From Takakia lepidozioides (lineage: Eukaryota > Plantae > Bryophyta), in the NCBI GenBank assembly GCA_030704615.1, contig CM060731.1, positions 83,824,001 to 83,888,000 on the forward strand: 64,000 bases of DNA. Direction: 5' to 3'. Numbering within the stretch: position 1 is the stretch's first letter; each line of letters opens with the position of its first letter. Positions 31-45,731 of the stretch are shown piece by piece. Position numbers and translations under genes: made by a program. The notes under the pieces are model-generated. The model made no database searches and was not told where the DNA came from. It saw nothing but the letters and a program-made list of their open reading frames with translations.

Positions 31-220
31 GGAAATGCGGCGCCGCATTTCCCTTTTGAATCTCATACTTGGAGCTGTGGGACGGAAATGCGGCACCGTA
101 TTTCCGTTCAACAACTAAGGTATGTGAAGGTGGAACGGAAATGCGGTGCCGCATTTTCTTCCAACAAGTACGGATGTGTAGCTTCGTGATGGTACTTAAC
201 GGAAATGCGGCGCCGCATTC
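31..220. repeat. Cluster of 4 copies of 22-bp palindrome A (GGAAATGCGG-CG/CA/TG-CCGCATTTCC)
   Basis: Copies at 31, 84, 137 and 201. The copy at 31-52 is a perfect palindrome, and the first three have a 53-bp period. Confidence 0.95.
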
Positions 221-657
221 GCATTTTCGCTCCAACTCATCAGACGCTGGGACGGAAATACCTTGAAATGTGAACACGTGGAGCAACGGAATTGCTGCAC
301 ATGTCGGCACTCTATCTGACTGAAGGGGCATGAGGCGGCGCGGCCTGACCGTTGGATAATGATGTTTGTTTTTCGGACGGCAGGCGTACCCTCAACGATT
401 CGAATTTCGTAATGACGCAAACTCCACGAGGAGACACTTTCGTCCAACCCTTTCGAACCCAAGTGGTGCATCACCGCCGTTTCATCTACTTTTGTCGTGT
501 CTCCTCAGTCACCCCTCTCGCGCCCTTTCCATCTGCACTCTTTGCCCTTTTCCCTCTCTCTGTTCTTCTTATGCTCGAACCTGAGAGGGGGGGAGTTCGT
601 GCACCAGACAGGAGACCTCGTCGCAAGCTCCGGAAATTATACTTCGGACGTAGGCCA

Positions 658-3600
658 ATGCCGAAGGGGAGGAAGCAGATGCGTCTACAGGAGGAGATTG
701 CCATCTCCGAGCAGCAGGCCACTCAGGCAACCCAGCCACCAGTGAGAGCTCCATGCGATCGGGCTGCGCGCAGCTGATCGAGCACCGAACCCCCCATTTT
801 GCTTCTGTAATTCTTAGACTGAATGCTAGGAGACTTGAATGCAGAACATGTTTGCATGCCTAACAGGAAAGGTGGACGTGCTGGAGGGATCGCAGGAATC
901 CGAAGAGCCGCAGGAAGAGTCCGAGGAGCTAGCTGCAGCACGTACACCCACCCGATCCCCGAGCGCGGGTATTCCTGCCGGGCCTAGCCCTCTGCGATTC
1001 AAAGACGCGTCTTCGAAGGGCAAGTTCAAAGTCCCAGAGATCGACTCGCGTTCTTCGGTCATGGAGAATCGCCAGCAGGGGTCGGGCCCTTCTCCAGCAA
1101 AGTCGAAGAAGAAGCAGCCCGTCCCTCTACTGGCTTCTGAACCGGCTCAGGCCGATTCACCCCCCCCAACGCGAATGAAGCAGCAGGGTAGAAGACAGAT
1201 TCAATTGCAGCAGACACCTTCACCTGCAAGGATGAGGAAGCAGAAGGCAATCAGGGCGACGGGCGAACAATCTCCCGCAAAACCGCTTCCACGAGCTGAA
1301 GCTCAGTTCCTGGAGGATTTCCCGCCTGCAGATGTTGGGGCCGACTCTGCTGCAGCGAAGGCAATGGGATCGACCGTTGATCTCGATTTGGTACCGGAGG
1401 AGGGTGCTGCCGCTCAACGTTCGCAGCAAGACCTCACCACCGATGAGCAAGCAGGCCCGGAGGAGGCCTCTGCAATGGCAGAATTGCCCGCACACAGGCC
1501 CCAGAGTGCAGCTCCAGTTGAGGATGCTCCAGCTGCTCAGCCACTACCGGCACCTACAGACATGTCTCCGGAGGATTTCAAAAGTGCAGCGGATAAAATG
1601 TTGGAGGAGACACACAGTAGCATTGGCAGAGTTCTGGGCAGCAGGGTATTCCAGCGGACTCTTCGAATCCCACTCTGTCGCATGGTCTCCCTTCCCATCG
1701 TCAGGCAGGCCCTTCCCGGAGATGTGGATAAGCTCAAGTTCGCATTTCGAGAAGGGTACCGTCTGGGATCGGCAGCGTTTTACGTTTCCATTGAGAATGA
1801 GGACGGCGAAACTCGTGGACCCACTGCCGATGAATTGTCAACGTGGGATACCCACTGGCACACTCGCAACCACGAATTCGAGGCGACGCTGAAGGGTGAT
1901 CCCGACTTCGGCCATATGTCGGGTAAAATGTTCTTTGTGTGGGACGGGAATCACCGACTTCTCGCCTGGTGGGAGTACATCAAGCAGAACCATGCCAAGC
2001 ACATTGGCTGGCATTACATGGTGGAGTGTGTCATCCTCAAGGTGAAGGCGGCAGACTCCTCCCTGCTCAAGAATGCCATGGCGGACCTCAACTCGTAAGA
2101 TACTCATACCCTCCCTAGCACGTTCGAAATGCGGTGCCGCATTTCGGTTTCCATTCTGGTTTGTTTCCGTGCTTCCGTGTACTGAACTGGAGAGTGTGCC
2201 TTGCAGGGTCACTGAAAATGCGTACGTGCATACCCACATGGCACACATGCTGTACAGGGTGAGGAAAACTGGTCTCACTGATCCGCAGATGTTTGCGGAA
2301 ATGCTGGAGCCCGAGCTCATTCAGAAAGCCGTTGCAAAAACAGACCGGACATGGTATCGTCTCACTATGGATGGAATGGTGGAGGTGATATACGAAGTAA
2401 GTCGTCCTCCAATTTCCCTCTGCTCATCCTTCCCCAATTTTCAGTAATGTTTCCACATGAATCGAATGTAACGCTTCTGCATGTTTTTGTTGGCAGTCAA
2501 ACATCAAGCTGGATTTGGCCCATGCCAAACGCTTCTTCATGGAAAGTGAGGGGCAGGTCAAAACGTTGCAGTCATTGACTGAGCACTTGAAGGAAGCCGG
2601 TGTCAAGTCCAGAACCAAATACAAGTCAAAGCTTGTGAAGCTGGTGGCAATTGCAGATCCGGCACTTGGAAAGGACTTCATCCCCGAGATTGCAAAACAC
2701 TATTCTCGGGCCATGCAGCCGACCATGCAATTGGAGAAACTGCATCACCTCTCAACGGCATGTGTGGAGGCGAAAGAGAAGGTGAGGTTTCAATGCACTG
2801 AAGTTCCTTCCTAGCAATAGCCACTCTCTTCCAGCTCCTGACATTGGATCGGAAATGGCAGACACGGTGGCTGTCGATCTGGAATGCATCCGAGAGCATA
2901 AGGACAATGTGGTCTTTTCCACTGGAAGTTTCCGACCCTGCAGTGGATGTGTGGCTCAACCGTATGACTTGGTGGTTCCAGGTAATTCAAGGTACTTCCC
3001 CAGATTTGCTTTTCTGACATGAATTCCCTGAACTGCTACGTGACAATGCATTTGGGAATCGCAGGTAATGTCGAATGCGAAGGAGCAAGTCGTAATGCAC
3101 ACAAATTCGTTCGGCTTGTACGTCAAATGGGATGGAACACAGACATTGGAAGACTACGTGACACGTTTCAGATGTGCGTACAAGGACAACCTTTTCGCCA
3201 GAGAGCTACAGACAGCAAGAAGGAGCGTGGAGTTTACACATCAGGAGGGAGCGGGGAAAGCTGCAATGCGAATTGTTTACAGGTGAAGCACAGCTGCCCT
3301 TGTATGCGAAGCCTGGTTACGAGGTTTGTCTCGGAAATGCGGCACCGCATTCGCATTTTATGTTTTCGGTGGCACTCTGCCAGTAGGTTGGTCTCAACTT
3401 TTGCTCACGCATGCTGACTGCCTTGCAGGTATATGAAATACGTGCTCCTTCAGACAGGGGCCCTGGCTCAAGAGCCCCCGTTCTTCATGGCTTGGACCGT
3501 GGCGGGCCCAAGCTGTGTCTACACACCCGAGATGCAGAAACAATGGCATCCCGCGCATCTCGTTGGATGCCCGTGGTACCTGGACATGTCTGGCGGTATT

Positions 3601-5782
3601 GTTGACGAGTCTGAGAAAGATCTGCACGCCTTGGCAGAAGAGAAGAGAAAGGAAAGACGTGTCCCTGCTGGGCCAAAGTCGGCAAAGGAATCTGCTGCTC
3701 TGGAAGAATCCAGAAAGGCAGCTGAGATGGCACAAAAGACGGTGGATGCAGCTGTGCAGGCCCAACAGAAGGGGTCGAAGAAGAGGACTCGCCAGCAAGG
3801 AGCAGCTGTTGTGACACCCGCCAAAACGAAGAAGCAGAAACAGCCTGTTCAGGAAGAGGGTGAGGAAGAGGACTCCGATGGAGACTTTGCAACCAGCCCA
3901 CCCCCCCAAACGCAGGCTGCCTCCCCTGTGCCCACCGTTGTCACGAGAGGCACGAGAACTGGCTCGGCAAAGAAGGCACTCTTCAACCCCCCAGGGGGGC
4001 ACCCTTTCGAGCCGGTGGAAATGAAGAGGCCGAAAGTGGCTCCCGAAACTGTAGTCCAGTGTGTAAATGAGAGTTTCTTGGCGGCTTTGGATGGACGGGC
4101 AGCCAAGTTGGCATACATGAAGACCATGGAGGGTCTGAAGGGCAGAGCACTGAAGAAGGCGACTGCCGAAGAGCCTTCCGACACCCCAGGATTTCAGAAT
4201 ATGGTCTCGTTCTTTGAGAGGGTGTGTGCAGACAAGGATTGTAGGAGGGGCGGAAATGCCACCGAGTGGTCTTGCGATATGATCATCTTGGATATTCCGG
4301 ACGGAGAGCCTGTGGAAGGACTGCAAGCTTTGCCATCTTGGAACAGGTACTCGGAGGACTTTTGGAAGAAAGGATTCGGGCTTGCCCGCATGGTGTTGGA
4401 CGACAGAGGCTGTGTGGTTGTCCTGGCGAGCAGAGGAAAAAACACTCAGACAGGAATTGCGAAGTGGACCCGCAAGAGCGCCGTCCCGATTCTGAAAAAG
4501 AAGTGGACGTGCATCAACACACTGGGCCTTCGGTCGGAAGGGAAGAAGGTGATTACGACACTGGCACTCGTCCATTCATTTGCTTGGGTGTTTTCAAATG
4601 CGGTGCCGCATTCGGTTTCTAATCGTTTTCCCCCTGTGTATGCAGACGAAGCAGTTCGATGCATACTGCTTTGTGAAGGAGAACTCCACCTTTGCTTTCC
4701 GGAAGGAGGGAGGAAAGGTTGACCCGAACTGCGACCCACTCGATTACGACGTTCTGTTCAACAACGTTCCCAAGGAACTTCTCCCTCATAGCCTCACTTC
4801 AACGGAACCCCTGCGGTACTCACGGACTCGGAGCCCTGCCTTCATTCAGACAATTATGGAGACATGCACAGACGTGGAGGGCACAGTGCTCGACCTCATC
4901 TGTGGGACAGGTATGCAGAATCTTGATCTATGCTGTTCTGCAAATTCTCGTTAGGATGTAGTTCGCAACATCTGAAGCGCCATGTGGTAATGTGTGGATG
5001 GCATTGTAACAGGTGCCTCAATGTGGGCTGGGCGGTTTTCCGACCGGCACCTCTTTGCCTACGAGGAGGATTCATCCGTGTGGGGATCCCATCTGGAGGG
5101 GCTGCAACGGAATGTGAAGGCTCCCGACAGAGCGGAAGTCTCCTCGGATTCGTCGGAGTCCGAGGAAGACACAGTGGACATTGATGCGGAGGAGAACCCG
5201 GAATACGAGTGAGTGCAAACATTGTAAGTTTGCAAAGCCTTCTGGGTCATTTATGTCAAACGAATTTCCCGACTGTGGTTCTCATTAGTCTCGTTGATGA
5301 TTGTCATGTGCAGGATTGCAGGGTCCGGGTCGAAACATGTAGGGCCTACACTTCCTGCCAGGAAGAATGTCCCGTTCTTTGCGAGGGCCGACTTCATGAC
5401 GAGCCCGGTGAGGGACTACTCCCTTCCTAGTTATGCAGCTAAACTCGCAAATACAGCGATTAGAAGAAGTGAGAATCCCAGTAAAGTAGAGCAGATTTTG
5501 GAGAGGGCTAGGGAGGACAGAAGGATAAGGAAAGAGTTGGCAGCAGCTCAGACAGGTAGACGGGTACGAAAGTACATATGTGATTCAGCGGATGAGAGCG
5601 ACGCAGACAGGGAGGAAGACGACCCAACGGAGGTGAGATGGACAGTTCCGCAAGGGGAAGATGGGATTTTCGAAAGCCTGGCCAACGAGCAGTCCGCTGG
5701 AGATGAGAGAGGCACTGAGGGGGTGGAGGAGGAGCAGGACAGTCTAGAACAGGATGAGGATTCGGATGATTTTCAAGATTAA
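658..5782 (+). CDS. Multi-exon ParB/Srx-like domain + N6/N4-methyltransferase-like fusion protein (copy A)
   Basis: Exons read through ORFs 839-2094 (IPLCRMVSLPIVR...FFVWDGNHRLLAW), 2207-2396, 2497-2781, 2862-2981, 3065-3282, 3429-~4548 (DMIILDIPDG), 4646-4910 (RSPAFIQTIMETCTDVEGTVLDLICGTG), 5013-~5208 (ASMWAGRFSDRHLFAYEED) and ~5334-5782. GT..AG junctions are visible and shared with copy B. The first exon (ATG 658) is tentative. Confidence 0.7.
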
Positions 5783-5919
5783 TAGAATTTTAATGAAGTC
5801 TCTGTAAATGTAAATTCTCTTCCAGAGTATATAAAGGAAATTCTGCCCGACATTCGTGACCCCTCTCCAGTGTGCATTCCAGCCACACAATCGCCCAAAC
5901 CACGACGCTCCCAAAATCA

Positions 5920-6681
5920 GAAATGGGGCACCGCATTTCCAAAAGGGGAACTCTAAGAACCTCTTTTGGAAATGCGGCACCGCATTTCCAAAACAGGGGA
6001 GGGACTAAATTTTCCATTTCAATGTTGGCATAGTAAAAAGTAATCTGAATTGGAAATGCGGTGCCGCATTTCCAAAATTTCCTTTGTCCACACGCCAGTT
6101 TTGGCCTCTCCCGCTCATTGCATGGATGCCACCACGCTTACAGAGGTCGAACAACGAGGTCGAACAAGGAGGTCGAGATGGCGGGATTGAAAATGCGGTG
6201 CCGCATTTCAGTATTGGGGATGGTCGTTGTTCGAACTGCAGGCCCATCAGCAAAAAATTGGCACCGCATTCCATTGTAAAAAAAAGTCGATGACGGACAT
6301 GGAAATGCGGCGCCGCATTTCCAGAACGGACATCGCAATTTGTCCATTTGCAGACCCTCTCTCGGAAATGCGGTAACGCATTCCATCGCGCTGGTCGGAA
6401 ATGTCACACTTTTCGAAGTGTTGTACGGAAATGCGGCACCGCATTCCCTTGTCCAAAAAGAAGTTTCCATTGCCAAGCTGGAAATGCGTCGCCGCATTTG
6501 CAATGCCAACCTCGTTTTCTGATCAATTTATAGACCCGTGTTGGTATTTCGTGTACCTGGACGGAAATGATGCACCGCATTTCGATGTCCGACATGGAAA
6601 TGCGGCACCGCATTTCGATCCCGACATGGAAATGCGGCGCCGCATTTCGATGCCGACATGGAAATGCGGTGCCGCATTTCA
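5920..6681. repeat. Dense cluster of ~13 copies of palindrome A downstream of the gene, ending in a ~32-bp tandem array
   Basis: Copies at 5920, 5968, 6052, 6189, ~6258, 6301, 6364, 6427, 6480, 6563, 6596, 6628 and 6660. The last four are linked by GATGTCCGACAT-like spacers. Confidence 0.95.
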
Positions 6682-6937
6682 ATGTCCGACATGGCGTTAC
6701 TCTGGTATATTCTTGACACATCACTCACATACCGGTTACTCTGCTATATTCATCCGGACAGACACATTGTAGAAATGAGACATCAAATTGTAAACAGTGG
6801 GCCAATTCCGACAGTTATTCAACACAATGAAACACAATCATACAGAAGTGAGGTACGATGGGTTTATTGATCGGACACGATGTCTCACATTTACCAACTG
6901 CAGACAAAACTAAGCCCTTCCTCCTTCTACATGGGCT

Positions 6938-7516
6938 TCACCAAGTCGACGGAACTTCGATACCCCTCAAAACAAGCTCATCACTGCTGCGGCACCTCGA
7001 GGTAAACTGCAATTCGGTCGTTCTGCTGCCCTTGCTGGAGCCGACGACAATGTCATGTCCATCAATGATACCACCATCATACATTGACAAGGTCACTGTG
7101 GGCCTCATGTGCCCGTGCGATTCGTCTTCGCAACGCAGCCGAATGTCTCCATACACTGGAAGAGCGGAGTGATCTGCACGTATATAGTTTTCCCCGGTGC
7201 CGTCCTCCCTGGTCCACTGGCAGCAGTTCCAGCGCCAAAGCGAGGCCGTGCGTGATCTGTCCGGCATCCCTTTCCAGCTTGGTATATCGAGGTCAACAAT
7301 TTTCAGGACCCACGGACCGCATTGACCCTCGCCCTCACCTCGCTCAAAGCGGTAATAGCCCTCCAGATACTCCATTGCGCGCAAAGACTCTTGCTTGATT
7401 CCAGCAGCGTCTGTGAAAACAGAGAGCCAGACAATGATGTCTCCTGATTCTGGTTTGAACATAGCATAATCGTGGCCATGATAAGGGCAGTCGGCTGGAT
7501 TTCGGCGGCACGGCAT
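6938..7516 (-). CDS. Unknown ~190-aa protein, paralog 1
   Basis: Open frame from ATG 7516 (MPCRRNPADCPYHGHDYAMF...). It aligns over its full length with 8066-8628. Confidence 0.65.
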   Translation of the reverse strand: MPCRRNPADCPYHGHDYAMFKPESGDIIVWLSVFTDAAGIKQESLRAMEYLEGYYRFERGEGEGQCGPWVLKIVDLDIPSWKGMPDRSRTASLWRWNCCQWTREDGTGENYIRADHSALPVYGDIRLRCEDESHGHMRPTVTLSMYDGGIIDGHDIVVGSSKGSRTTELQFTSRCRSSDELVLRGIEVPSTW

Positions 7517-8065
7517 CCTTGAAAAAGAGTAGCGGAGTACGCTCAATGACAGCAGCTCCCGGATGGAGGAGGAGCAGCGCGGTGGCTGGAAAAAGTTCAA
7601 GCTAACGCTGCAATTCCTCACAAACACTCCAGGGCACATTTAAATTTCCCCCTACAGGATCCTGGACCGATGAAGATTGGCTGCTGCATGAATGTAGCCG
7701 TTTCTGTTTCCTACCCTGCCATGCAAACTATGGGCAGTCACTGCCAGGTGGGCCGATAGCCACTGGACACGACGAAGTCCATCCCCTCTTCGATGTAAAT
7801 GCGGCGCCGAATTTCCATCCGGGGGGATGGACTTCGGTGGCAGATCTCAAACTATAACTTGTTGATGAGAAAGATGTATGGCTTCATCCACCGCTGCCGT
7901 GATGAACACGTTCCACCTCCGTCGGTGGGTACGTGTGACCCAGATGCTCCATTATTGGAGGCCGGACTGCTCTTCCGCTTCGTATCATTTCCAAAATCTA
8001 AGGGCTTCGTAGCTGTCCGCAAGGTCATCGGCATCCAAGTCGTCCTCAGGTCCTCCTTTGCAAGG

Positions 8066-8628
8066 ATGCCGTGCTTCCGGAACCGGGACGACTGCCCTTT
8101 GGAGGCATCGATTATGCAATGTATTCGGCCACATCGGGAGACATTGTTATCTGGTACACAGATTACACAGAAGATACTGGTTCGATTGTGGAAACATTGG
8201 TGGCTTTTGAGTATATCGTAGGCCACTACGCCTTCGAGCGGGGTGACGATCTTGGTCTGAGGAGTCCGTGGCTCCTGCGCATCCTCGATTCCGATTTTCC
8301 CAGCTACGACGGTCACCCATGCAGAAGAAGGCGCACTGCTATGCTGTTGCGGTGGAACTGCTGCCACTGGACGTGGGTGGACTCCATCGGAGAGACCTAT
8401 TCTCCTCGAGGAGTGCGCTCCTCTTCTCCATTGTATGGGGACATTCGCATTGGTGTGGACGACGAAAACGTGAAGATTTCCATATTCGATGGTGGTATGA
8501 TTGAAGGGCAGGACATTGTGGTGAACATCACTAGGGGCGGTACAACGGCTGCAATCGACTTTACATGGAGGAGCCCCATGACTCATGAGCTAGTTCTGAG
8601 AGCAGTCGAAGTCCCATTGACAACGTGA
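8066..8628 (+). pseudogene. Unknown ~185-aa protein, paralog 2, with a 1-bp frameshift near the N-terminus
   Basis: MPCFRNRDDCP (ATG 8066) shifts frame at ~8100 into FGGIDYAMY...SGDIVIW...RWNCCHWTW...PLYGDIR...ELVLRAVEVP, matching paralog 1. Confidence 0.65.
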
Positions 8629-9249
8629 CTTGTATTCAGTAGGCACAGGGCTCAAGATTTGATGGCACAATCAGCACAGTAGACGTGCTTCAAATGCAAT
8701 TCATGTGGATCAATAAAAACCTCATTGTGCCCTCTTTTTATTCTATTCTGTGTCCATCGTTCCGAGAATGCGTCATTGCTCATTTCGTTTGGGATTGGGA
8801 GTGTGGGTGAATTTTGCAAATGGCTGGTAGGCTGAAATGGGCCCCCATTGTACAGAGCAGTACCACCCTACCATTCGCGAAACATTGCCTTTCAATATAT
8901 AATTCTAAATAACATTGCCGAACCTCCTTCATCGGGAGGTCCTTCTCCCCCTATGACCGTGGCACCCTAAACCCTATTCCCGCGGACACTCATTTCCGGA
9001 AAATAGTGCTGCTCATGTTTTTTTCCACACTTACGACTCTGCTCATGGCTCATGCCGCTCATGGCTCATGGCTCATGAAATAGCAGCCCCCCTTAGGACT
9101 ACCAACGGCATAAAGTGTAGTCACGGCCATGACTACCCTCAGCCCCACAGCCAACGTGTGTGAGACACATGCTTTGTTAGGCAGTCATGGCGCTCCTGAC
9201 TGGCGGTGATTTAAAAAAATGGGACCCCACCTTGAGCAGAGACATCAGG

Positions 9250-9489: not shown

Positions 9490-10959
9490 ACTCGACCCCC
9501 CACCCCTCTGTACATCTTGATTGTCGTGCTGCGTTTAGGGAGGCGATGTGCTCATGCGATGGTCAAGCACGCGGCCACTGCACCCATTACCGACTATGAG
9601 AAGCTAAGAGAAGCTAACATTGCTCACATCAAGCTAGTTGAAGCGGAGCTGCTGAAAGACATAGCACAGTGAGTTCACTTTTGAACTATCAAAGTCACTC
9701 TTTTTGCAGAGGTTTGCAGCTTGCGGTGCTTGATTTCATGCAATGTAGGTAGCTTTGTGTTCCTAAGACACCATGAAGAGGATGAGATGAGTGCGAGTGC
9801 AGTGTAGGTTGTGCTCGCATGGTGGAGTGGGCGGGAGATCGCCGCATGTCGCGGGTCTGAAAGTTGCTTCACTTTTAGGGTTGAGGGGTGCATTAGTTCG
9901 TCATCTCCTCCATCATGTTTTCTTTCTCATGTTACACTCAGGGAATTAGTGGTTGGTTTAGGGTTTACAACACCTTCCATGGGGTGTCCAATGCAGGATT
10001 GTGGGAGAGAAGCCAAAGCATGCAAGACGACGGCCACCAGCCCGCCCCTCTGGTCCCCCAAGACGCAGTCGCATAGAGTCCATGGCCCCCCCCCACACGG
10101 AGATATGCAATTGATGATGATGATGAGGACGACCTCTGTGTGCCTGCGATGGAGCACATCAGGGACTCTGATGAAGACATGCCCTGCGGTGAACCTGCCC
10201 CAGCCACCATCTCGCACAAACGCCCAGCAGCTGCGGAGTCTCTATCTGTAAGTACCCAGCTCGGTGTAGATCATGTATAAGTATCCAACCAGATAGAAAA
10301 ACTGCCCGTCCACAGTTGCATTGCCCCAATTTTGAAAGTACTTGCCAAGTACTTTATGGAAAGGAGGAAAAAAGGGAAAAAAAAATATGACGCCTCCCGA
10401 AGGGAGCGTAACTTATGGTGTCACTTCACCACAATGGTTATTGCCTTCCAGCTGAAAGGTGGACACCTTCATGACACACCAGACCGTGGTTTGAACCCAC
10501 AACCACATCCAACGTGGTATGTGCCCATTACCACTGGGCTACATGTTGGTTGTCTGGAAAGGAAGAATACATACCCCATTACAGGGAGCAAACACGATGC
10601 ATGAGAATATGGTGGTTGCATTTGCCAAAAAGAAGCAATTGAATTGACAGGTCTCCAGCATTCCAGGGGGAAGAGGCATTGGTAGCATGCCAAAAGAGGG
10701 TGAAAGCCAACCATTCCCTAAAACCATGCACTAGACGCGCAACAAGAGTGAGGCCTATTACATTTGGTCGATTTTATGCCCAAGACCTGCATGACTTCTT
10801 GGTAAATGGCACCTGATTTCTATTTTGTCATTGTATGATCCTCATTACCTTGATGTGCTTCCCTGGTGGTTGTGTGAGGGCTGAGTTTTTGCCAATTTTC
10901 TAGGGTGAGTTTTGACCAGCATTGTGTTGTGTGTTGCATAGGCGAGGAAGAAGCGTGCA

Positions 10960-14549: not shown

Positions 14550-15110
14550 CTACCTGTCAAACTCCCTCCACTCCTGATGGACTCTCTCATCCCAAGCCTT
14601 ATCAGAGAACTCATAAGAGGCGAACAACTCTGAACCGGCGGGAATCGTAGTACATACACATGTCATAACAAAATTTGATATCGATTGTGCTAGCCTAACA
14701 TCCCCGTCTTGTCGCTCATCCCACAGTACATTGGTCATTTTAGGGTTACCAATTGAACTATTGATGAACCCTGCAACATTCCCGAACACATCGAGATCTC
14801 CGTCACATATGACCCTTGTTCCAGGGTCCAATACCCGATTGAAGACATCGAGGTCATTGACACAAAGACCATAAGGTCTCACCCAAGGGGCTACCCGTTG
14901 CATTTGCGTCCAGTGGAACCACATGTAGTATGGGCCAAAGTAGGGAAATAAGTCCACTGTCTGCCCTCTCCCTGGAGGAACCACAATATCCTCCATTGCA
15001 AATAGCCCACGACCCATGGAAGGGTGGGTGGCGGCTTTCACGCAAAAGTGAGTCGACTTTCCACTATACTGTTGTTGCTTAGTTTGCAATCCCGGTTCGG
15101 CATAAGCAAC
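14550..15110 (-). CDS. SET-domain protein or exon (lysine methyltransferase fold)
   Basis: MGRGLFAMEDI...YFGPY...GNVAGFINSS...IPAGSELFASYE gives the GxG, (R)FINHS-like and ELxxxY SET motifs in the correct order. The start is uncertain. Confidence 0.7.
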   Translation of the reverse strand, partial: VAYAEPGLQTKQQQYSGKSTHFCVKAATHPSMGRGLFAMEDIVVPPGRGQTVDLFPYFGPYYMWFHWTQMQRVAPWVRPYGLCVNDLDVFNRVLDPGTRVICDGDLDVFGNVAGFINSSIGNPKMTNVLWDERQDGDVRLAQSISNFVMTCVCTTIPAGSELFASYEFSDKAWDERVHQEWREFDR

Positions 15111-15168
15111 ATTGGCATGTCTGCAATCACTTGCGGACCACATCCTCGCCCGCCATTTGGAGCATAAA

Positions 15169-15976
15169 ATGCCACGTTCTCGAAAAGAGGCAAGACAGGT
15201 TCTAGACACAGTGGGAATGGGCTACAAAATTTTCCATGTATGTCCTTGTGATCGCACCTTGTACTATGGAGAGCATGCGCGTGCTACCACGTGTCCCAAG
15301 TGCAAAAAATCTAGATAGCGAGATGATGTTCAAGGAAAGAAGATCTCACGAAAGGTACATTTCTCTTATATTCTCTTTCCTGCCATTTATATTTATATAT
15401 ATACATGTGTCCACCAACTAATATATCATTTTAGGGTGTAGGGTTTAAGAGGTTGTATCATTCCGATATTATTAGGGTATGCATATAGGTCATATAAATC
15501 TTTCAACTAATGTAGACTTTACAAAATATCTACATACAAACCTTTGCAAATATATACCCCTCTCTTACGTACAATATGTGGATCCAAATGACAGAAAGTA
15601 AATATTGATATATTTGTTGTGTTTGTGGGGGAGGTTAGAAAATGCATTATTTTCCAATTATCCCGCGCTTGAAAGCACAATTTCGGAGTCCATCATTTGC
15701 CCAACTCATGAAGTGGCATGCGGAGCATCGGAGCCCTCCCGAAAAGATGTGCGGCCCTCACGATTCGCTGGCATGGAAACACAATGAGGAACAATGGCCT
15801 TTTTTGAAGGACGATCCAAGACATGTTCGGCTCGGCTTCTTCACGGATGGTGTAATCCCACATTCAGTCCAGTCAAGTACCCATGCAACATGGCCTGTGA
15901 CTTTGGTTAACTACAATATCCCTCTTTATCTTGCTATCAAGAAGGGTCATATCATGTTGGCTGCCATTGTGCCAGG
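15169..15976 (+). pseudogene. CACTA Tnp2 (Transposase_21) fragment, truncated
   Basis: GMGYKIFHVCPCDRTLY...CPKCKKSR and HYFPIIPRLK...DSLAWKH...DPRHVRLGFFTDG...TWPVTLVNYNIP, with an internal stop and an AT-rich intron. Confidence 0.85.
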
Positions 15977-18170: not shown

Positions 18171-18873
18171 ATTTGGAAAGAAAATGGCGTTATATAACGA
18201 CTTTTGGGAAGCGCCTGGATCTCATGGGAGAAAATGGATCTGAAGAAAACATGAGAGAGGATAAAAAGTCAGACCACCAAATAAAAACTATGAGAAATAA
18301 AAATTGCTTAAAATTTGAACAACGGAAAAGGACATGTGAAATTCCTTCTTAAACCAGGGCCAAAGATGAGAAGTATGAAAATGAAATGAAATGAAAATTT
18401 GGTGCAAAAAAGTCGTAGAGCTTAGAGGGAAAATGGAAGAAAACCTCATAGAAAAAACTTGAAGACTGGCAAATTGAAGAATTGTATGTCAACAACGATT
18501 GAGTAAGGCTCCTCCTAATGGGAGACTTCAGTGGGAGAATTGGTTATGCGAAAAGCAAGTCCAATGTTTCAGAGAAGGACTGGAAATGGGGCTATTTTCT
18601 TCCGTTGTTAAAGACCTCTTTGACAGAATTTGAAGACTCCAGTGGTCGTGCCCGCCCATTTTGTTCTTGTGATCCATATGTTATGTAGGCAAAACTCCCC
18701 CACAGAGTCATCTTTGTTGAACAAGACGTACAGCAGGCCAGCATCCAACAAACCAGAAACAAAGGACGAGAACGTCCACTGGACATTCGAGGTTCAGTGC
18801 GACATAAGAAGATAAGAAAAATGATCCCCCAACGCAAACAAGAAGGGCCATATAGAGAAGAAAATTTTATTTC

Positions 18874-20760
18874 TTAAATCGAAGTACTGGAGTTGACCTC
18901 AACAATATGTCCTTGATCTGGAACTCGCTCGCACGACTCGTTTTTTGACTGACGATTAGCCTCCTCCAAATTAGCGCGTGCCTTCACTGCTTCGGCGGCA
19001 GTAATTCTCCTAGTGCTATTCCTTGTCGTATTTTTTCGTGGAGGCATTGTCCACACAACATTGTTCACGTGGATCCATTGAGAAGGATCTGACGAGTTAT
19101 ACTCCCAAAGTTTTGACAGTCCTTGTACCTTTCCAAGTCTGTTGGGTTACCACCTTTTCTCGGTCTCCACCACTTCACCTTCACCTTCTTAAAATTAGGA
19201 TCCTCCCTTTCGCGGATCATGTCAAATATTGCCACCCCCATCCAGACCGGGCACGTACTTGGGTCATAAGGGCGAACGAGCACAAAAAAAACCTTTCTCA
19301 ATATCCTTGAACGGATTCAGGGATATTCTTGGTCGCTCACATCTCGGGCCACAGTAAGGTTCTAGGATTTCATCCTCTTCTTCCACATCTGGCAATATAT
19401 GTGGATGGATTCCATCTCTGTGATGATTCTTGGACCAATTTGTTTTCGGCCAGAATCCCTCAAGAAGCTGAATACGGTCGGGAGCTTCTGGAATTGGCTT
19501 ATCCAGCTCGGCGAGAATGTTTCCCCAGTACTGGTCGTATTGTTCCATTCAACCTTTGTAATGATCGTCAAGCATCATTCATTTCGTCCAAAAATCCCTG
19601 TATTTTTTTATTCCATTCTTAATGAATGACTGTTTTTCGGAGGAGTCGTCCCCGACTTCCCAGATAGGTCTCCTTGGAATGGCGTCTGGGTCTCCTTCAG
19701 GGAGCTTTGGAGTCCCGTCAGGATTGGACTTCCACATCTTCACGCTATTGTTTGTTGGAAGCCAATCCGAATCAGTAGCGGACTTCTTGTACTTCATGAC
19801 GGGCCAGCCCTCCGCATTCTTAAAAAAACGGAAGACGTGCATCTCCGAAATCCCGACCAACGTCTCCTTTCCATCCAGAATATAGCCCTTGACAAAATTC
19901 TTGAAGTCGGGAACCTCCTGAATAATCTGTGGAATGAACTGCAGATCTTGCGAGGTCATAAAAGACCTCATCAAATCCGAAAGAATGTAGGTGCTTCGTT
20001 CCTTCAGCTTCTTCGAAAGGTAGCTGAAGAACCCGTCGATGTCCTCATGGGTGTGTCCGACCATTAGGAACCCTAGCTGGATTTCTTCAAAAACATCTTT
20101 GGTGGTCAGGAGGGATAGAAAAGCAAGCATCCATCTGTTCTTATTGTCCTTCGCAGAGTTGTCCATTTGCAAGTACAGTCTTCTCGGAAGTAGACGAGCA
20201 CCACGTTTGTCTTCCGGCCTGCAGGGTTTAAGAGCATCCAAACATCTCGATTTACCTCTTAAAGTGATTCGAAGAACTCGTTTTGAAGTCGGTAATCGAA
20301 AATGTTCCTGGACTCACGACAGGTTGGCTTCTCCAGCTGGCGCAGGCAACGTGCCAAAGAACCAATTGTAAAGTTTGAATTTTCCTTCCAGAACTCAAGA
20401 GAATACTGACTGTAAGCTCCATCACCATGTCCGTGCGTGACCATTCCCGTTAGTGAAACTGGAAGCTGACCCAAACCAGAAATCATTTTATTTGGAGTCT
20501 GTAGCCTTCCTCCAGCTATGGTACAGTCTTCTGCACAACTCTTGGTGCCTCAAATGTTTATCAAGCGCTCGTTTGTGTGTCATCTGTTCCGCACTTCTCT
20601 TGACAGACTTTCTGATCAGGTCCTTGAACATCTCACACTCCATGCACTTCGCAAATGTACTCCTAGTTTTACGAACCTCCACGTTAGGAAAAATCCGACT
20701 CCGGATGCGGCTAACAGCCGACTGCGAGACTCCTTCCAACCCGAAAAGTCTGTTGGTCTG
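18874..20760 (-). pseudogene. Sola-like / DUF7869-type DDE transposase, frameshifted
   Basis: FAKCMECEMFK...HLRHQ; LYLQMDNSAKDNKNRWMLAFL...FLMVGHTHEDIDGFFS; several consecutive minus-strand frames. The C-terminal part reads VWMG...VKVKWWRP. Confidence 0.75.
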
Positions 20761-22433
20761 TTACAATAAGGTAGGGTCAGGAAAGGAACTTCCACTGGAC
20801 AGTGGAGGTTCATAGGAGTGCACTCTTTGACCGATTTTCGGAAAAGAGTGTCATTTACTGGTAGATCCCTATGTAACAATTATGATGCCAGAAAGATAAC
20901 GGCCGATAACGGTGGTTCAATGGTCTCGCACTCGTGCTTATAAAGCAGTATGTATTTCGCATTCAATGTTGTCCAAGTGGATGATGGCCTGACGCCGATG
21001 ACAAGTGCAGCTATGACACTCGGCCGAGAATGCGGCAAGCGTAAATGAGTGACAGAGGAAATATTCCAAGCCTTAATCCGCCGAATGTAGACATGGTCAG
21101 GAGCAATTATTCCTAGCGGCAAAACGCCGCAAGAGGATCTGACTTGTACATTTCATTTATCGTCACGTGGGGGGTGTGGGAAATATCCCACGGGGTTATA
21201 ATTGATGATCATGTGCAAGGGATCATTAACGTCATATTTTCTCGTTCATTCATCTGTTTTTTCATTTCATCTAGTCATTCGTAAAATGGATGGATAGAAT
21301 GGAAAGGATGAATTGGATGATATTTGCATGGATGTTGGATGGAACACGCGCGACCGTTCGATTTCGAAAGGACGCGATGGTTCAGATCCTTTGCGACGGC
21401 ACCATATAAGGGGTGTGGTCGTTCAGCCCACCCTTTCGCCACTCCATTGTGTACGCGGAAGCGCTGCGGAAGTGGTAAGACCGAGTAGCGCTAGAAAAGA
21501 GAGAGTTTTGAAGAGCGGAGAGCGTGAAGAGCAGAGACTGTGTTGTGCATGGTGCCGTAAGAGCTGAGAGAAGAGAGCGTGCAGTTCAGTGCAGTGGAGG
21601 AAAGGAAGCAGACAGCGGATTCAAGTGCAGACAGGAGACGAGAAGGAAACAGAGCGTAAGGGAGAGCGGAGCGGAGCGGTGGAAGCTTAAGGGTCAAGCA
21701 TTTCACGTCAGCAACAGGGGCACCGAAATGGCTCACGCATCTAGCAGATAATGTTCTCGTTTATGCATGTGGTTTGATGTCATTCTCTCTTGCTCGCTTG
21801 TCATTCTCTTATTCTCTCTTTGTTCTGTTTGTTGATTTGCTTTTCTTTTTCAGCATCGCCCACGTCGCTGTTGGTTTGCTTCTCTTCCTCACTTGCTTTC
21901 GTTCCAGAGGTTATAGAGCACCATTTGATTCTTGCATGTCATGTTTCGTGAATGTGTTGTCTTGTCCGATGTGGAGCATCTCTTTTCAATTCATGTGGTT
22001 TCAAAGCTGTTTCAATTAGTTTGAATTGATTAAAGCTGTTTAGGTGTTTCAATGCATTGCTGCTTCTCTGCTGGTGGTTTGTATGGTGGTTGGTATGGGT
22101 GGTTTGTGGTCCTGGTTTACTGGTGCTGCTGGATTATTAGGGTTATGGATTAGGGTTATGGCGGGTTAGGAGCATGGTTTTTAGCGATTGTTTTTCCGAA
22201 TTTCCGATATTTGATAACGGGTTTTTCTTCGGGGCTAGGCAACTCTAGTAGACTAGTCTCCGTAGACCACTAGACCTCTAATAGACCTCCATAAACTCCG
22301 ACAGGACAAACCACACGAACCTCGCCTGCCCAGTGGAGGTTCCTGCGTGTTACTATGCCAAGGCACAACATAAGGATGTATTGAGATAGACTTATGTAGG
22401 TTCCTCCCCTGCGTTGATTTTTTGTTCTGTCAG

Positions 22434-23013
22434 TATAAAAAGAACGGGCGTAGGAGTGCACACGGTGGCCAAAGATGGTTCTGAGACCGTCGTCGACATC
22501 TGTAAGAGGCCAAGGAGACAGAATCGAGTAAGCATCAACGAAGCAGAAAACCAGGACGAATCACTGGTTGTATCAAAAACAAAAACCTTCAAGAAGAGAT
22601 CTGAGAATCAAATATCAGATGTGGGCTCTGACGTGCGAACCTTCATAAATCCGGGCACTGACAAATCAATGTTCGAGGGAGTTATTTGACGGGAGACAAC
22701 GGAGGAAACAAAGGAAGAGAAAGATGAAAGTGATGACTGTAATCTTCACTCTGATTCATATAATGACATTTCTGTAGGAGATAGTGAACAGTACCCGGGA
22801 TCCGTCCTTCCATCCTCTCCAGGATACAGTCCTCACTCTCCTCAGTATGCAGTCCTTGTAAATTCTCCAGAATATGTCCCCGCTGATTCTCCAGAATATG
22901 TCCCTGCAGATTCTCCTCAGTACGTCCCTGGAGATTCTCCAGAATACATCTCTGGAGATTCTACGACATATACACCTAGAGAGTACTCCCCTGAAACCTT
23001 GAGGATGATTTGA
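22434..23013 (+). pseudogene. Acidic protein or exon ending in SPxYxP tandem repeats (Pol II CTD-like); one in-frame stop
   Basis: The frame of ORF 22414-22689 continues past the TGA at 22687 to SSPGYSPHSPQY...NSPEYVPADSPEYVPADSPQYVPGDSPEYISGDSTTYTPREYSP, encoded by a 24-bp repeat unit. Confidence 0.55.
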
Positions 23014-23287
23014 GAGAGCCTCCTGTAGTTATTGTAGATACAAGAAAATGAAAAGATGAAACTCATCTTACAAAAGAATATCGATTTATTGTAGAAATTA
23101 TATATTCGTTATAGGAACAATTTTGAGACCGCATGATGTATGGAATGTCGAGACGAGCCTTCTCTGCATAAATGTATTATTCTTCTTATAAGTGAAATCG
23201 TTTTCTCCTCCTGAATTGAACTCTTTTATCTGTCAGCTATGAGCGTATGAATTGTTGAACCTCCACTGGACAGTGGAGGTTACTGTC

Positions 23288-23815
23288 ATGGGAATCTTGT
23301 ATGGTTGTCATGATATGTGTCTGAGGACCGAGGTGGTTTGTTCTGTGGACAGCAACATTACCCCGAGGGATTGTATTGTTGGAATGTGCAAACCTATCTG
23401 TGGTTCATTTGTTTATCGAAAATCTCCGAATTTCAAGAATGATCACCTGGCAATTTTTGAGCTGAACCCGGAGATCACAGAATGGGGCATTGTACCCGTT
23501 GGCACACCTCCGGACCATAAGTTCCGGTTCCAATACAAGATTGGTGCAGAGGTTGCCGAGCTCAAATATGCAGATGTGGTCGACGTAGAGCTGGAGATGG
23601 ATGTGGAATTTCCGATGTTGGTAATGTTTATGATGGAAGATGGTAGATTTCCCAGAACGTTTGGCTTCAAACTGGAGGTACGAATTCTAAGGAAGGCCAT
23701 GATGAGAGAGTCCATTCGGGCGGGGTTCACATATTGCGACGATAGTACTCAATTTACAGATGAAGGTTTTTGCATGGCTTGGGGTATTTTTTTGGATGTG
23801 CTTTACTTAAAAGTA
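23288..23815 (+). CDS. Unknown ~175-aa globular protein or domain upstream of the ParB-like exon
   Basis: Long open frame within ORF 23252-23968 with protein-like composition. No family recognised. Confidence 0.35.
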
Positions 23816-23819
23816 AGGA

Positions 23820-26800
23820 GATTGCAAAGACGCGGGAGGAGGAGGTTGCAAGAGCGAAGCCAAAGAAGGGAAAATGGAAATCCATTAACGCCGGTGGTGA
23901 TGACAATGAAGCCGGTACATCAGGGGGAAAGAAGAAACAAAAGGAGGAGATGGATCCTGCTTTCATGACAGATATCAAGAAACCCAAGGCTGCAGACACA
24001 TTCGACAAAGACAAGTGTGAGAAGATGCTGGAGAGGCTGGAGCAAGATTACAAGGACATGTTTCCTTTTGGGTTTGAGGCGACCCAGGACGTCAAAGTTT
24101 CCATGATGGAGCTTGCTCCCAGAGATATGGTGTACAGGCCCCTAAATGTGAAGCACAAAGACGAAGTCAAAACGCGTCTTTACCAGCTCCGGGTGTTTGA
24201 CTCCAAACATCCAGTTTATTTGATTATTGCAAACCCCGAGAAGCCTATGGAGATTTCTAGTTCGAAACCTCGAAACTGGAAGGAGGTGGAAAATTCCAGA
24301 TTCTTCGTCATCGGTGGACAACACACGATCATTGCTGCCAAGGTAAATTTCCCGACAAAATCCAATTTTTGTAACAACATGAACCTCCACTGGACAGTGG
24401 AGGTTCATGAACTTTAAACAACATGCTTGTTAGGTCGATATCATTTCTGATCTTATTCAATTTTGTCGCAGGAACTTGTGCAAGACGTAGACGACGACAA
24501 TCTTAAGAAGTACTACACTGACTGGCCCGCAAAGATTATATGGTCAAAGGATCTGATGAGGCTCGTGAAGCTATCTAAGCTCCTAAACGACCCGAATAAG
24601 GCGCAGAGATTTGACACAACATTTCCCGAGAAAGTTGCACATGCCTGAAATTTCTTCGAGCTGAGGGGGAGGCCGAAAAAGTACAACGATCACACAACGA
24701 AGTCGGAGACTAGACAATGGAAGGTAAATGATTCATTGTGTTTTCCGTTCCTTTTGCTAGAGAACCAAAATATTCTCAAGCTTGGATTTAATGTGATGAA
24801 CGGAGACCGCATTACGAAGCAGGAGACAGTACAAAAATAGCTTCATAAGGGAGGGTGCTACAATGAACGAGCGAGATGGTTCAACATTCGGAAATTCGAC
24901 ATGATGGGGTCTTTTGTAATGTGTCTTGTTTGGTAATGAGGTGCTTGTCCAGTTCTTATTTTCCCAATCTATTTATGTTCTCCACCTGTAACAGTTCCGC
25001 AAATGTGCCGCAAAAATACTTGAAACATCATATGATCATGAAAACGTGATGGTGCGGAGAACGCTTCCAAAACTTTTCATGCTCATTGGGTTTTTCAAGG
25101 ATTTTCTAGGTACACTCTTGGAACTGTTCCTGGTGAAGAACATGAACAGATTGGACAAATTTGACTTGGAGGAGCACCGCATTCCGAAGCAGGAGACACT
25201 ACAGAAATAGCTTCAAATTACAAGGCACAACAAGATGGACGGAGATGAATTCACAATCGAATCATCACTTGGTGTATAGTATAATTGACAAGATAGTTGT
25301 GACTATTGTTTCATCTCAAGATTAATATCAAATATTGAATGAAATTTCTAACTTTGGCCCTGATATTTTTCGTAGGAATTTATGCAAGCATGTCAACTCA
25401 TACTGGAGATGAGTAGCGTGAATGAGGCCATGGTTCTGGTTCTTTGTGGCGAAGACGTATGGAACCTGTGGGAGGAGGTTTTCAAACAGTGGGAACAAGG
25501 AAGCTTATTGATATTTTCGGGATTCAGTGTAAGGGTGAACAGCTACTGCTGAATAAAACCGCTATCGCGACTGCAAGGACTTAATACCAGGCAGTTGAAA
25601 AGAGTGGCGGAGAAAATCCTAAACAGAGACATTTGCATTCGGGGAACGAAATTCAAGGGCGCGGACAAATCCAAAAACACAATGAGCGCGTATATTGACC
25701 AAATGAAATTGCGACGGTTTATTATCGACGATGTAATGGAAGTCTTAGGGTGGCCTCGAAGGAGCAAATAGAACCCGGAACCGTATACCAAACAGGAGTG
25801 GCGTGATGTTAAAAAAAAATACAACTTCAACAAAGCTGAGTTTGAAACATTTTGAGATAGGCTCGGGAACGACTACATTGTTAGCAAACAGAAGATGAAT
25901 ATGGAGACGCAGCCAATGACTGCTGCCTTCAAGAAGTATGTCTTGTCGTGCAAGCAGACCTTCGAGGATAACCAGAATGCCCTGGCGATTCTACGCACGA
26001 GCTTCAGGTCCCATTACACACAGCTGGGGGGAAACCAGAAATTTGCTGATGCCAGATCACGGTTGGGACTTGCACCAAAGAATCGGTTCGACGACATATC
26101 CATGGTGTTCGTCAATACAGTTTGTGATGATGACTCTGTTGTCTTCGAGACAAATGACTACTCAAATATCTTGGATGCTTTTGTGGCTCGGCAACTCATG
26201 TCTAGTGCTTTTGTGTTTTTCTCCACACAAGAATCATCGGGAAATCTTGTGTCATACATCCGGAATGGCCCTGGATCAAAATCGTTTATTATCCGACAGG
26301 GTTATTACATTCCCGGCGAGTTTGAATCACATTACAAGAGCTGCACGACTATATTCTCCCGGATGGTCCTCTGCCTTGACTACGTATTTCCGGCAACAGC
26401 TGAGGAGATGGTGAATCTGGACGACCACATTCAAACTGTTTTGTTATCGCCGGACCCAATTAATCCCGTTATCCAAGGACCAGATGTAGACCCGACCTCA
26501 CAAGAGATGGAGTGCAAGATTTACAATCATGAGCTGAGGCCGGACACCTATGATTACCTGGTTTTTTTTTTTTGCAGGGACGGGATGTCTTGTGTGAACA
26601 TTTTCGGAGGATTGGCAATGACATACGTTCTGCTTGTAAGCGGATTCTGCATCTTGGAATTGTCTGTGTTTTTAGTTTTCCGGATTTAACTCTCGTATTA
26701 TTGACGTTGTCGAAAAAGCGTGTTTAACCTGTGTCTGATTGTTCCATTTTGTTAACCTCCACTGGGCAGTGGAGGTTCATGTTATTGGAGTTGTGGGTGT

Positions 26801-27554
26801 TTTGGGTGTTTGTTATTCTGTAGATTGGTGTGTTTGGTAGTTGTCTCAAAAGAAAGCCTAACCCTTTCAATCTATCGATGGTTGGTGTTCGTCGGATTTA
26901 TTTTGATATCATTGTTTGGTTTCATTGCAGGAAAGAAATATTTGTGTGCTCGACATAAACTTTGTAACAAAAAAGAAATTTTGTAGAAGCAAGGTGGAGG
27001 CCTATTTTAGGACCCTCCAGATTGACAATCAGACTATCGCAGGAGACGGAGATGACGGTGACTCATTGCAGGATGACGAAGTGGACGAAGATGATGATGA
27101 CGAAGGACACGACAAGGATCTGGACGAGGAAATGGAGGAGAAACAATAAGAGGACGACGAGGAGGAGAAAGATGAATATGAGAACATGGAAATCGTCAAC
27201 GGAGTCCAGGGGCAGATGCGGCTAATGTTGGAAAGGGAAAGAGAGGGCCAGGAAATTTCACGGTTGGATAATCTAGGTAGTACTCCAAATACCCAAGAAC
27301 GCGTTGCGCCACAAGATGTACACAATCTGGACAGCTCTTCCTCCAGTTCCGATAACACCACGAATAAGAATCCGGCTTCTCCAGGCGGACAAGAAGCGAC
27401 ATCGACGGAGTTAGTTGAAACCCTCGGTCAAGGGTTTACACCTGTGGAAGGTGACGAGCCATTCATTATGTCACCGGATCCCGTTAACAATCGTCGTGAG
27501 CTGGTGTCCCAGAATGTCACTCAGGATCTGGTTCTGGATGTAGGTAACGAATGA
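23820..27554 (+). pseudogene. ParB/Srx-like + methyltransferase-like fusion gene (copy C, distant homolog, disrupted)
   Basis: MVYRPLNVKHKDEVK...FFVIGGQHTIIAAK (ParB-like); later HELRPDTYDYLVFFFCRDGMSCVNIFGG...|ERNICVLD (degenerate SAM-binding segment); acidic tail; several in-frame stops. Confidence 0.55.
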
Positions 27555-27799
27555 CAATTAGTGAAAGTTTATTCGTACACACTTTTGAATACAATATGAC
27601 AATATTGTAATTATACATACTTGTGAGTGGAATAATCCGAATGTTATTTCCATATGACAATATTGTAATTATATATAATCCCAATGTTTTTCCCATATCC
27701 GTCTTTCTGGACTTCCGAATAAAACATATTTCCACCCGGATACATATTTCCCTTCGCACACCTTTGTGGACATCCACTAACCGATTTGGATAACTTTTC

Positions 27800-28450
27800 T
27801 TGTAGATCCAAGAATCCAATTCGGAGGAAATGACACACACAAGAAAAGGATCAAAGGACACTCAAACGGTGAAGAGACACGTGGATCTGACAGCGAGGGC
27901 CAGGTCACCTGAGCCGGTTCCGCAAGTGACCTCCATTGTCCAGTCGACGTTGCCATCAAGGGACGCAGGGATTGAGTCGGAGAATCCTCCTACTCGCGGG
28001 GAAGGAGAAGAGACAGAGCACCACAATCGAGTAATCCAACAACAGATCCCAATTCGGGTCAAACATTGGCTTTTTTCTTATTACTCTTATTATTGGTCTT
28101 TCAGTCTAATCTTCGGTACTGCTCAATTCGGTAATTTTGTCAGATCATTTTGGACCACCATAGTCGTCATCCGTGGGATTTTTCATTAATTTCCTGTAGA
28201 TTTGTGAGACGACGTCTGAGGAGATCAAACACACGAGGACTGACTCTATCGACACTGAGACGGTGAAGAGAAGAGTGGATCGAACAATTACTGTCGCTCT
28301 ATATGAGCCGGTCATACAAGTTACCTCCACTGGACAGTCGAGGTTGCCATCTGGCTCCACAGAGAAGGACGATAACGTTGGACGTAGAGATGGGAAAGAG
28401 GAGGAGCAGCCTGCCCAGGGATCTCAGCGGCCCACTCCAAAAACGGTAAT
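27800..28450 (+). repeat. Tandemly duplicated exon-intron unit
   Basis: 27800-28055 and 28195-28445 share an acceptor context and GACACT..ACGGTGAAGAG...GAGCCGGT..CAAGT.ACCTCCA.TG..CAGTCGA.GTTGCCATC. Confidence 0.7.
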
Positions 28451-38119: not shown

Positions 38120-38752
38120 ATGTAAAAGAATGGCTTGAAGCCGGACAGTATCACCTTTATATGTGTTCTCTCTGCATGCAGCCACTCTGGCCTACTGAAT
38201 GAAGGAAATCAAGATCATGGTGTCACTCCGACAGTAAAGCACTTTGGCTGTATGGTGGACCTTCTTGGACGTGCAGGACAACTAGATGAGGTAGTGGATC
38301 TGATTAATAAGATGCCAATCAATCTAGACGTTGTGGTGTGGAAGGCCTTGCTTCGTGCCTGCAGAATCCATGGCAATGTGGAGATGGCTGAATGTGCGGC
38401 AACATCTATCCTCAAATGGGATGAACACTAGGATGCCGCGACTTATGTGTTGCTATCAAACATCTATGCTGCAGCTGGTAGGTGGGATAATACTGCAAAG
38501 GTGAGAAGAATGATGAAGAGTAGAGGGGTTAGAAAGGAGCCAGGTCGCTGCTACATTGAGGTTGGCAATAGGGTGCACACCTTTGTTGTAGATGACATCC
38601 CAGAAATTAAGGAAATCCATGCTGAGCTGAGTCTGGGCAGATGAAAGGAGGCGGGGTATGTGCCTGACATGTGTTTGTATTGCATGATGTGGGGGAGGAG
38701 GAAAAGGAATTTTTTGTTTGCCACCACAGTGAGAAGCTGGCCATTGGTTTTG
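38120..38752 (+). pseudogene. PPR C-terminal L2/S2-E-E+-partial DYW region 1
   Basis: ITFICVLSACSHSG, CMVDLLGRAG, VLLSNIYAAAGRW, KEPGRCYIEV, GYVPD, HSEKLAIGF, followed by unrelated sequence. Confidence 0.9.
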
Positions 38753-45561: not shown

Positions 45562-45731
45562 AAACAACCAACATGTAGCCTAGTGGTAAGGGCATATACC
45601 CTCTTACGAGTGGTTGTGGGTTCAAACCACCCCGTTGGTTGTTACAAAGGTGTCCACCTTCCTACCGGAAGGCAGTAGCCATTCTGGGTCAAGTGACACC
45701 ATAAGTTACGCTTGCTTCGACAACGGGTCCA

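Follow-up and report, generated by a model that had tools for sequence, protein, structure and literature searches.

A land-plant family of ParB-fold proteins with a methyltransferase (MTase)-fold domain is the accessory cargo of MULE-like DNA transposons, and two divergent members, copies A and B, occur in a 64,000-nucleotide stretch of the Takakia lepidozioides genome (the window). The interval 4276–5070 is the 3' end of an intact multi-exon gene, copy A, in which it encodes the C-terminal MTase-fold domain of such a protein. The domain is conserved, but judging from its motifs the base-stacking and probably also the SAM contacts have been lost, and it is likely to be a pseudo-methyltransferase rather than an enzyme of altered chemistry. 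Palindromes with a three-CpG core accompany both copies and would be the candidate binding sites of the encoded proteins.

Gene structure and domain composition

Copy A was modelled on GT..AG splice sites. The features of the two copies are as follows.

867–5782 (+): copy A gene, a single open frame of 1362 codons in nine modelled exons (867–2094, 2207–2396, 2497–2781, 2862–2981, 3065–3282, 3429–4548, 4646–4910, 5013–5208 and 5314–5782)
1661–2094 (+): ParB/Srx-fold domain of copy A with the DGNHR motif, its fold taken from the model of homolog P0001
4276–4548 (+): N-terminal half of the copy A MTase domain: a strand, DIPDG (4291–4305), P-x-W-N (about 4333–4344), then a helix and a strand
4646–4910 (+): exon with the C-terminal half of the copy A MTase domain: the W-R-G-x-R-E-K-S/D segment, SPAF and the motif I variant DLICGT|G
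5013–5071 (+): end of motif I and acidic strand of motif II (RHLFAYEED) in copy A
49700–54640 (−): copy B gene, modelled part, its low end being a modelling bound; the frame is open through the MTase domain

The interval 4276–5070 is made up of three exons, separated by introns at 4549–4645 and 4911–5012, and not of a single ORF. The 5' end of copy A is not fixed by the model, a candidate ATG lying near 658, and a 30-nucleotide 'intron' at 2259–2288 was discarded, since the frame runs through it without a stop. Run X9 includes one contig in which the junctions 2781|2862 and 2981|3065 are spliced with GT..AG ends; in copy B, contigs of this run skip 51975–52920 and 51176–51326 with canonical ends, the latter with an acceptor that differs from the modelled one. 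Runs X9 and X10 are taken to be RNA by guess only, so these joints lend weak support. Spliced copy A aligns with the Ceratodon protein M758_1G295400 (P0002) at 28% identity (E = 9e-100), and both copies can be aligned along the length of this protein. The two copies are 28% identical to each other and have six intron positions and phases in common.

The motifs given in the preliminary description, DIPDG and the later SPAF, DL..TG and E.D, were recovered in both copies, each in an open spliced frame. Copy A (+) reads DMIILDIPDG, then RSPAF at about 4829–4843 (SPAF at 4832), VLDLICGT|G, which is interrupted by the GT..AG intron 4911–5012, and RHLFAYEED, which ends at about 5071. Copy B (−) reads DIVILDIPDG at 51146 and KSPAF at 50472, followed by VVDLSVSTG and RSLFGMEGD. 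The family's W-R-G-x-R-E-K-S/D segment is divergent in copy A, where it reads LRYSRTRS.

The N-terminal part has a ParB/Srx fold with a G-x-x-R motif. When the N-terminal model of homolog P0001 was compared with known structures, the top eight matches (Z 5.1–8.0, middling values) were all ParB/Srx-fold proteins, among them PadC (Z 8.0) and KorB (Z 7.8), and Noc, PadC, Srx and ParB lead the Foldseek list at E values of 5e-3 or weaker. The DGNHR motif is present in 27 of 27 homologs. Pfam returned no match for this domain, and the helical part that follows it in the P0001 model had no match above Z 3.5. ParB proteins bind CTP, recognize a palindrome through a helix-turn-helix motif and slide along DNA as clamps.

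The MTase fold was assigned through homolog P0088, which carries a DLPE motif and served as a proxy for the window proteins. Its whole-domain model (m8aaa343dd22e; mean pLDDT 67.5, with the active-site loop 78–90 below 50) matches CcrM with a Z score of 12.6 (rmsd 4.2, 181 aligned), followed by MboIIA (12.1), BceJIV (11.6), rotifer N4CMT (11.3) and PvuII (11.0), and Foldseek matches it to beta-class MTases at E = 3e-7. In Ceratodon P0002, PF01555 is found at 903–1119 with 30.4 bits (cut-off 26.7), while P0088 falls below the cut-off. The CcrM match and the PF01555 hit bear out the beta-class amino-methyltransferase fold proposed earlier, and the presence of a ParB/Srx-fold N-terminus in the same protein does so for the proposed ParB–MTase fusion. 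ESM Atlas neighbours of the N-terminal half of the copy A domain carry PF01555 (scores 0.92–0.93; 14–56% of cluster members), and the C-terminal half can be placed in register with HPTQKS and DPFMGSG of M1.HpyAVI by a weak match (E 0.05–0.3). In copy A, motif IV precedes motif I; this order and the fold are those of CcrM, M.MboIIA, M.PvuII, rotifer N4CMT and Marchantia DN4MT1. Neither the two exon pieces of copy A that bear the MTase domain nor the copy B pieces gave a Pfam match, a profile of the N-terminal half retrieved no methyltransferase among PDB sequences, and other searches of PDB sequences were weak or empty.

Searching with the N-terminal exon yielded 27 homologs, including the full-length Ceratodon protein, a Selaginella protein (DMPDG) and an Adiantum fragment, so that the named homologs come from a moss, a lycophyte and a fern; a word search with the exon of the N-terminal MTase half of copy A gave zero homologs. 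A ParB-profile scan, run with one or two short patterns that distant relatives could escape, confirmed none of 27 stretches from viral contigs and 0 of 6 from prokaryotic genomes. Matches of the MTase part to phage MTases were weak (E = 7e-5 and 2e-3). The module had been described as prokaryote-derived; its fold agrees with this, and since the searches turned up no close relative in phages or prokaryotes, it is from the fold that such an origin is argued.

Association with MULE-like transposons

Linkage was assessed in the best 80 of 282 related loci, which gave 45 clusters after de-duplication. Upstream sequence reaches at least 5 kb in 22 of the de-duplicated loci; of these, 11 have a MULE-like transposase upstream on the opposite strand and 11 show no transposase, many loci being short; none of the 17 loci with at least 8 kb downstream has one on that side. 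The ParB exon is broken in 38 of the 45 loci. Terminal repeats enclosing the locus were not present among the five longest inverted repeats per locus in 10 loci.

The arrangement is seen in the window around copy B:

49084–60358 (no strand): element B, approximate extent about 11.3 kb, from imperfect inverted repeats and read-run cover
56134–59778 (+): MULE-like transposase, head-to-head with copy B and frameshifted in the window

The inverted repeats of element B (49094–49140 and 60317–60358) are short and imperfect, with 81% identity over 47 bp. A loose end lies at 49084, cover by runs X4 and X7 falls largely within 49084–60358, and no clean target-site duplication was found for the element. 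The transposase has MULE neighbours in the ESM Atlas (score 0.94; PF10551 on 12–89% of cluster members) and a SWIM match (E = 0.005), and its frameshifted pieces gave no direct Pfam MULE match. The frame breaks at 56799, 57533, 57670, 58006 and 58667 coincide with single-base indels that are absent from the contigs of other runs; these indels may stem from misassembly or be peculiar to this copy. Outside element B, 62097–63017 holds a fragment of a CHX-like cation/H+ antiporter host gene.

Copy A has no transposase within the window; the gene starts near the window edge, and its upstream DNA lies outside. The element-A region also contains two divergent paralogous ORFs, 6941–7639 (−) and 8002–8625 (+), which are 46% identical; there is no Pfam match for the 6941–7639 frame and no homolog of these ORFs among the 45 loci. 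Several runs have loose ends at about 9047–9093, which suggests that element A ends there.

A third element, C (18772–28344), has a DUF7869 transposase-like gene (19.5–21 kb, −) head-to-head with a gene at 23.2–26.7 kb that contains FFVIGGQH, a ParB-like motif only. DUF7869 is presumably a mark of Sola-type transposases. The ORF 23243–23965, just upstream of the ParB-like motif, has a weak SmaI-type nuclease match in Pfam (E = 0.007, below cut-off). The palindrome of element C, ACCTCCACTG-NN-CAGTGGAGGT, occurs at eight sites and has a core without CpG. The gene at 23.2–26.7 kb showed no significant match to the profiles of the A/B family (probabilities of 1.4% and 0.2%), and row 'C' of the motif alignment was ignored as it had been cut out of frame. 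Long inverted repeats 35 kb apart (10398–10553 and 45564–45719) enclose CACTA transposase pieces (Transposase_21, DUF4218 and a weak Transposase_24) as well as a weak SET-domain ORF (14553–15221), element C and a PPR array, whose repeats (35700–44150) are tandemly amplified, partly decayed and spaced at about 300 bp. The PPR and CACTA content of the window is that of a land plant, and its closest named homolog points to a bryophyte.

Erosion of the methyltransferase motifs

Seven intact-looking sequences (A, B, L001, P0002, P0026, P0088 and P0090) were compared at motif IV. DIPD of copies A and B indeed lies in the register of this motif, where it aligns with DTPF of Ceratodon at the start of the PF01555 match. 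Instead of the catalytic (D/N/S)PP(Y/F/W) with an aromatic fourth residue, the seven read DIPD (A and B), DMPD, DIPE, DLPE, DVPE and DTPF: D-x-P is kept in all seven, and the fourth residue is D or E in six and aromatic in one, the Phe of Ceratodon. The 10 rows drawn from other loci, most of them decayed, have G, R or S as fourth residue and in one case an aromatic (W), with variants such as DVPR, NVPG and DILG; rows not covering the motif or misaligned there (L031, L039 and one L077 piece) were excluded from these counts. As had been claimed, the motif is conserved and not randomly decaying, but the exact DIPDG is not family-wide, the pattern of the intact-looking members being D-[ILVMT]-P-[DE]. 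The downstream Trp of P-x-W-N is invariant in a 13-row alignment of the N-terminal half.

Could this conservation be illusory, the domain being a functionless relic behind a useful ParB protein, with DIPDG common to the copies through coincidence or recent shared ancestry? Of the homologous loci, most (38 of 45) are broken, and their motif IV is variable, as such a relic would predict. Against it, copies A and B are both open through the domain in spite of their low identity and have introns in common, D-x-P-D recurs in the lycophyte protein P0026 (DMPDG), and many positions of the C-terminal half are kept in more than 80% of 65 rows. We regard a relic as very unlikely.

These 65 rows were recovered by a profile built on A and B and are thus biased towards A/B features; P0036, a repeat-protein false match, was left out of the counts. 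At the position of the motif I Phe they have T (32), S (15), I (9) and F (1), and at that of the first Gly S (29), G (15) and A (11), copy A keeping G; the last Gly is retained in 46 of 64. The position of the His of HPxxK is G in 58 of 65, and each position of the family-specific W-R-G-x-R-E-K is kept in 46–59 of 65. A, B, P0002 and P0088 all carry the Glu of motif II (E-x-D). Solved enzymes, as given in the available text of PMC10406627, use the motif IV aromatic for stacking on the target base and the His for contact with the ribose. The beta-class MTases described in the available sources have (D/S)PP(Y/F) and an intact FxGxG, and the eukaryotic ones are not described there as ParB fusions.

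The preliminary description had left two options, altered chemistry or a dead binding domain. The second is favoured and the first less so: because the aromatic is replaced by D or E in six of seven members and the motif I Phe survives in 1 of 65 rows, with the SAM-binding motifs eroded too, a pseudo-methyltransferase appears likelier. A parallel is METTL14, in which, according to the available parts of PMC5023411, a beta-class fold has lost the motif IV aromatic (EPPL), one mark of its inactivity, and has a non-catalytic nucleic-acid-binding role; METTL14, however, works on RNA in a complex with the active partner METTL3, while no active partner is known here.

On the other hand, the catalytic Asp, a Pro, the motif II acid and the G-T-G of copy A are retained. 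Because the first three remain and Ceratodon keeps the Phe, an active amino-methyltransferase with a rebuilt site is possible, although we consider it fairly unlikely. In such an enzyme, the Trp of P-x-W-N would replace the aromatic, and 4mC placed on the outer CpGs of the palindromes described below, or 6mA nearby, would block host 5mC and deamination. The Asp and Pro of motif IV in seven of seven members, the invariant Trp, the motif II E-x-D and the DTPF of Ceratodon, whose domain passes the PF01555 cut-off, are consistent with activity, and the analogous Ectocarpus protein is predicted, in the available text of PMC12477816, to make 4mC or 6mA. Activity is harder to reconcile with an acidic residue in place of the stacking aromatic in six of seven members and with the loss, in most rows, of the motif I Phe, its first Gly and the ribose-binding His position.

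CpG-cored palindromes and the proposed role of the protein

Each of the two elements has its own family of palindromes:

31–7816 (no strand): element-A palindromes, GGAAATG-CGGYRCCG-CATTTCC, 20 sites at up to 5 mismatches
52119–55032 (no strand): element-B palindromes, TGAATGT-CGTCAACG-ACATTCA, clustered in a 0.9-kb intron

The element-A palindromes flank the gene and sit in three of its introns (2125, 3333 and 4594); 19 sites were found at up to 3 mismatches as compared with 0 in five base-shuffled windows. In element B, weaker sites lie upstream of the ParB exon, and there are none in shuffles. Families of at least three 22-bp palindromes with a CpG-type core occur in 13 of the 45 loci and in 0 of 450 shuffles, the other 32 loci being without such a family. 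Site density is 0.47 per kb near the gene, 0.14 far from it and 0.06 in shuffled sequence, with most palindromes up to 1.5 kb upstream or 2–3 kb downstream of the ParB exon. Because the window and these loci were themselves the source of the pattern, the shuffles guard against chance but do not control for discovery, and tandem copies are not independent.

When sites were matched on the arms only, the core proved to be CG-N-CG-N-CG or a C-to-T derivative of it. Across 12 homologous loci, mostly decayed, CG, TG or CA occupies 138 of the 152 outer positions and 71 of the 76 central positions; of the outer positions, 30 still read CG and 108 read TG or CA. In elements A and B, CG remains at 50 of 54 outer positions, as compared with 6 of 27 in the centre. 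Intact elements thus retain or protect their outer CpGs, and the central CpG decays freely. The arms vary between families, while the three-CpG core is fixed.

The reading that we prefer, to which we would give about an even chance, is that the protein binds the CpG-cored palindromes of its own element, acts there as a pseudo-methyltransferase and shields the element from silencing. It would recognize the two-fold palindrome as a dimer, and the MTase fold might grip the outer CpGs or cover them, transferring no methyl group. The ParB-fold domain would dimerize or spread along the element, under nucleotide gating if the analogy to ParB holds. Occupancy would then protect the promoter region common to the two divergent genes from 5mC silencing, much as VANC does for VANDAL elements.

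Sparing of the outer but not the central CpGs from C-to-T decay would also fit the active enzyme considered above; selection on binding sites, however, would account for CpG retention without methylation. A more elaborate version is a 'parS-like' identity system, in which a ParB-fold clamp on the palindromes is combined with a D-x-P-[D/E] MTase that writes 4mC on the two outer CpGs and thereby pre-empts host 5mC. If true, this would constitute a sequence-specific protective mark written by a transposon and a new catalytic motif, but we think it unlikely.

Alternatively, the protein may be a transposition helper rather than an anti-silencer. Bound to the palindromes, it would bridge the element, compact it or load the transposase, offsetting weak terminal repeats, with the MTase fold as a dimerization or DNA-binding scaffold. 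The ParB fold, the short and imperfect inverted repeats of element B, the scatter of palindromes over introns and flanks and the strict head-to-head arrangement with the transposase would all suit this role. It leaves unexplained, however, why the three-CpG core is retained while the arms change between families, and we find it rather doubtful.

Binding and shielding by the protein, as we prefer, has a precedent in the VANDAL/VANC system of Arabidopsis, in which a MULE likewise encodes an accessory protein and carries short motifs, specific to each family, outside its coding sequence; the concentration of such motifs in the element's non-coding DNA, a VANC-type trait, is found here as well. 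According to the available parts of PMC5735166, the motif bound by VANC21 is 9 bp long, with its copies arrayed in a single orientation, and VANC21 has been shown experimentally to cause hypomethylation. Here, by comparison, the motifs are palindromes of 22 bp, the protein combines a ParB fold with an MTase fold, and its proposed function is read from sequence.

Transposon accessory genes combining ParB and a methylase have already been published for algae, and the present family is a catalytically eroded land-plant variant. Closest by description is the accessory gene of Ectocarpus Sola1-1_Ec32, which, in the available text of PMC12477816, lies opposite the transposase and encodes a protein of about 1,100 residues that is ParB-like with a predicted N4C/N6A methyltransferase; its proposed role is binding and modification of the element that encodes it, and similar ParB–methylase proteins are cited for green and red algae. 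Both systems thus have a ParB-like part and an amino-methyltransferase in one gene opposite a DNA transposase. The Ectocarpus gene belongs to a brown alga and a Sola1 carrier, is treated as active and comes with no mention of palindromes in the main text as available, whereas here we find land plants, a MULE-like carrier, eroded motifs IV and I and CpG-cored palindromes. In the red alga Bostrychia, as reported in the available parts of bioRxiv 10.1101/2025.02.11.637652, PAG2/PAG3 of Plavaka elements comprise a ParB-like transposon protein beside inverted-repeat arrays, with a PF01555 methylase in the cassette, and homologs of Plavaka accessory genes occur on Mutator elements of Chondrus. The Bostrychia cassette has separate genes for a ParB–2OG oxygenase fusion and a methylase–SET fusion, while here ParB and the MTase fold form one protein. 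Our literature search, thin on subscription journals, retrieved neither land-plant members nor the eroded motifs or the three-CpG core, and the available parts of Iyer 2016 (PMC4738411) and bioRxiv 10.64898/2026.08.24.746577 do not describe a ParB–MTase family of land plants.

The family extends the algal class of accessory proteins to mosses, lycophytes and probably ferns, and suggests that in the land-plant branch the methylase became a non-catalytic module. The matched pairs of protein and palindrome offer a testable model of transposon self-recognition and protection. As copies A and B are both open and have different palindromes, comparison of their cross-specificity would be straightforward, and if binding is confirmed, the family would provide a natural set of sequence-specific and possibly methylation-sensitive DNA binders.
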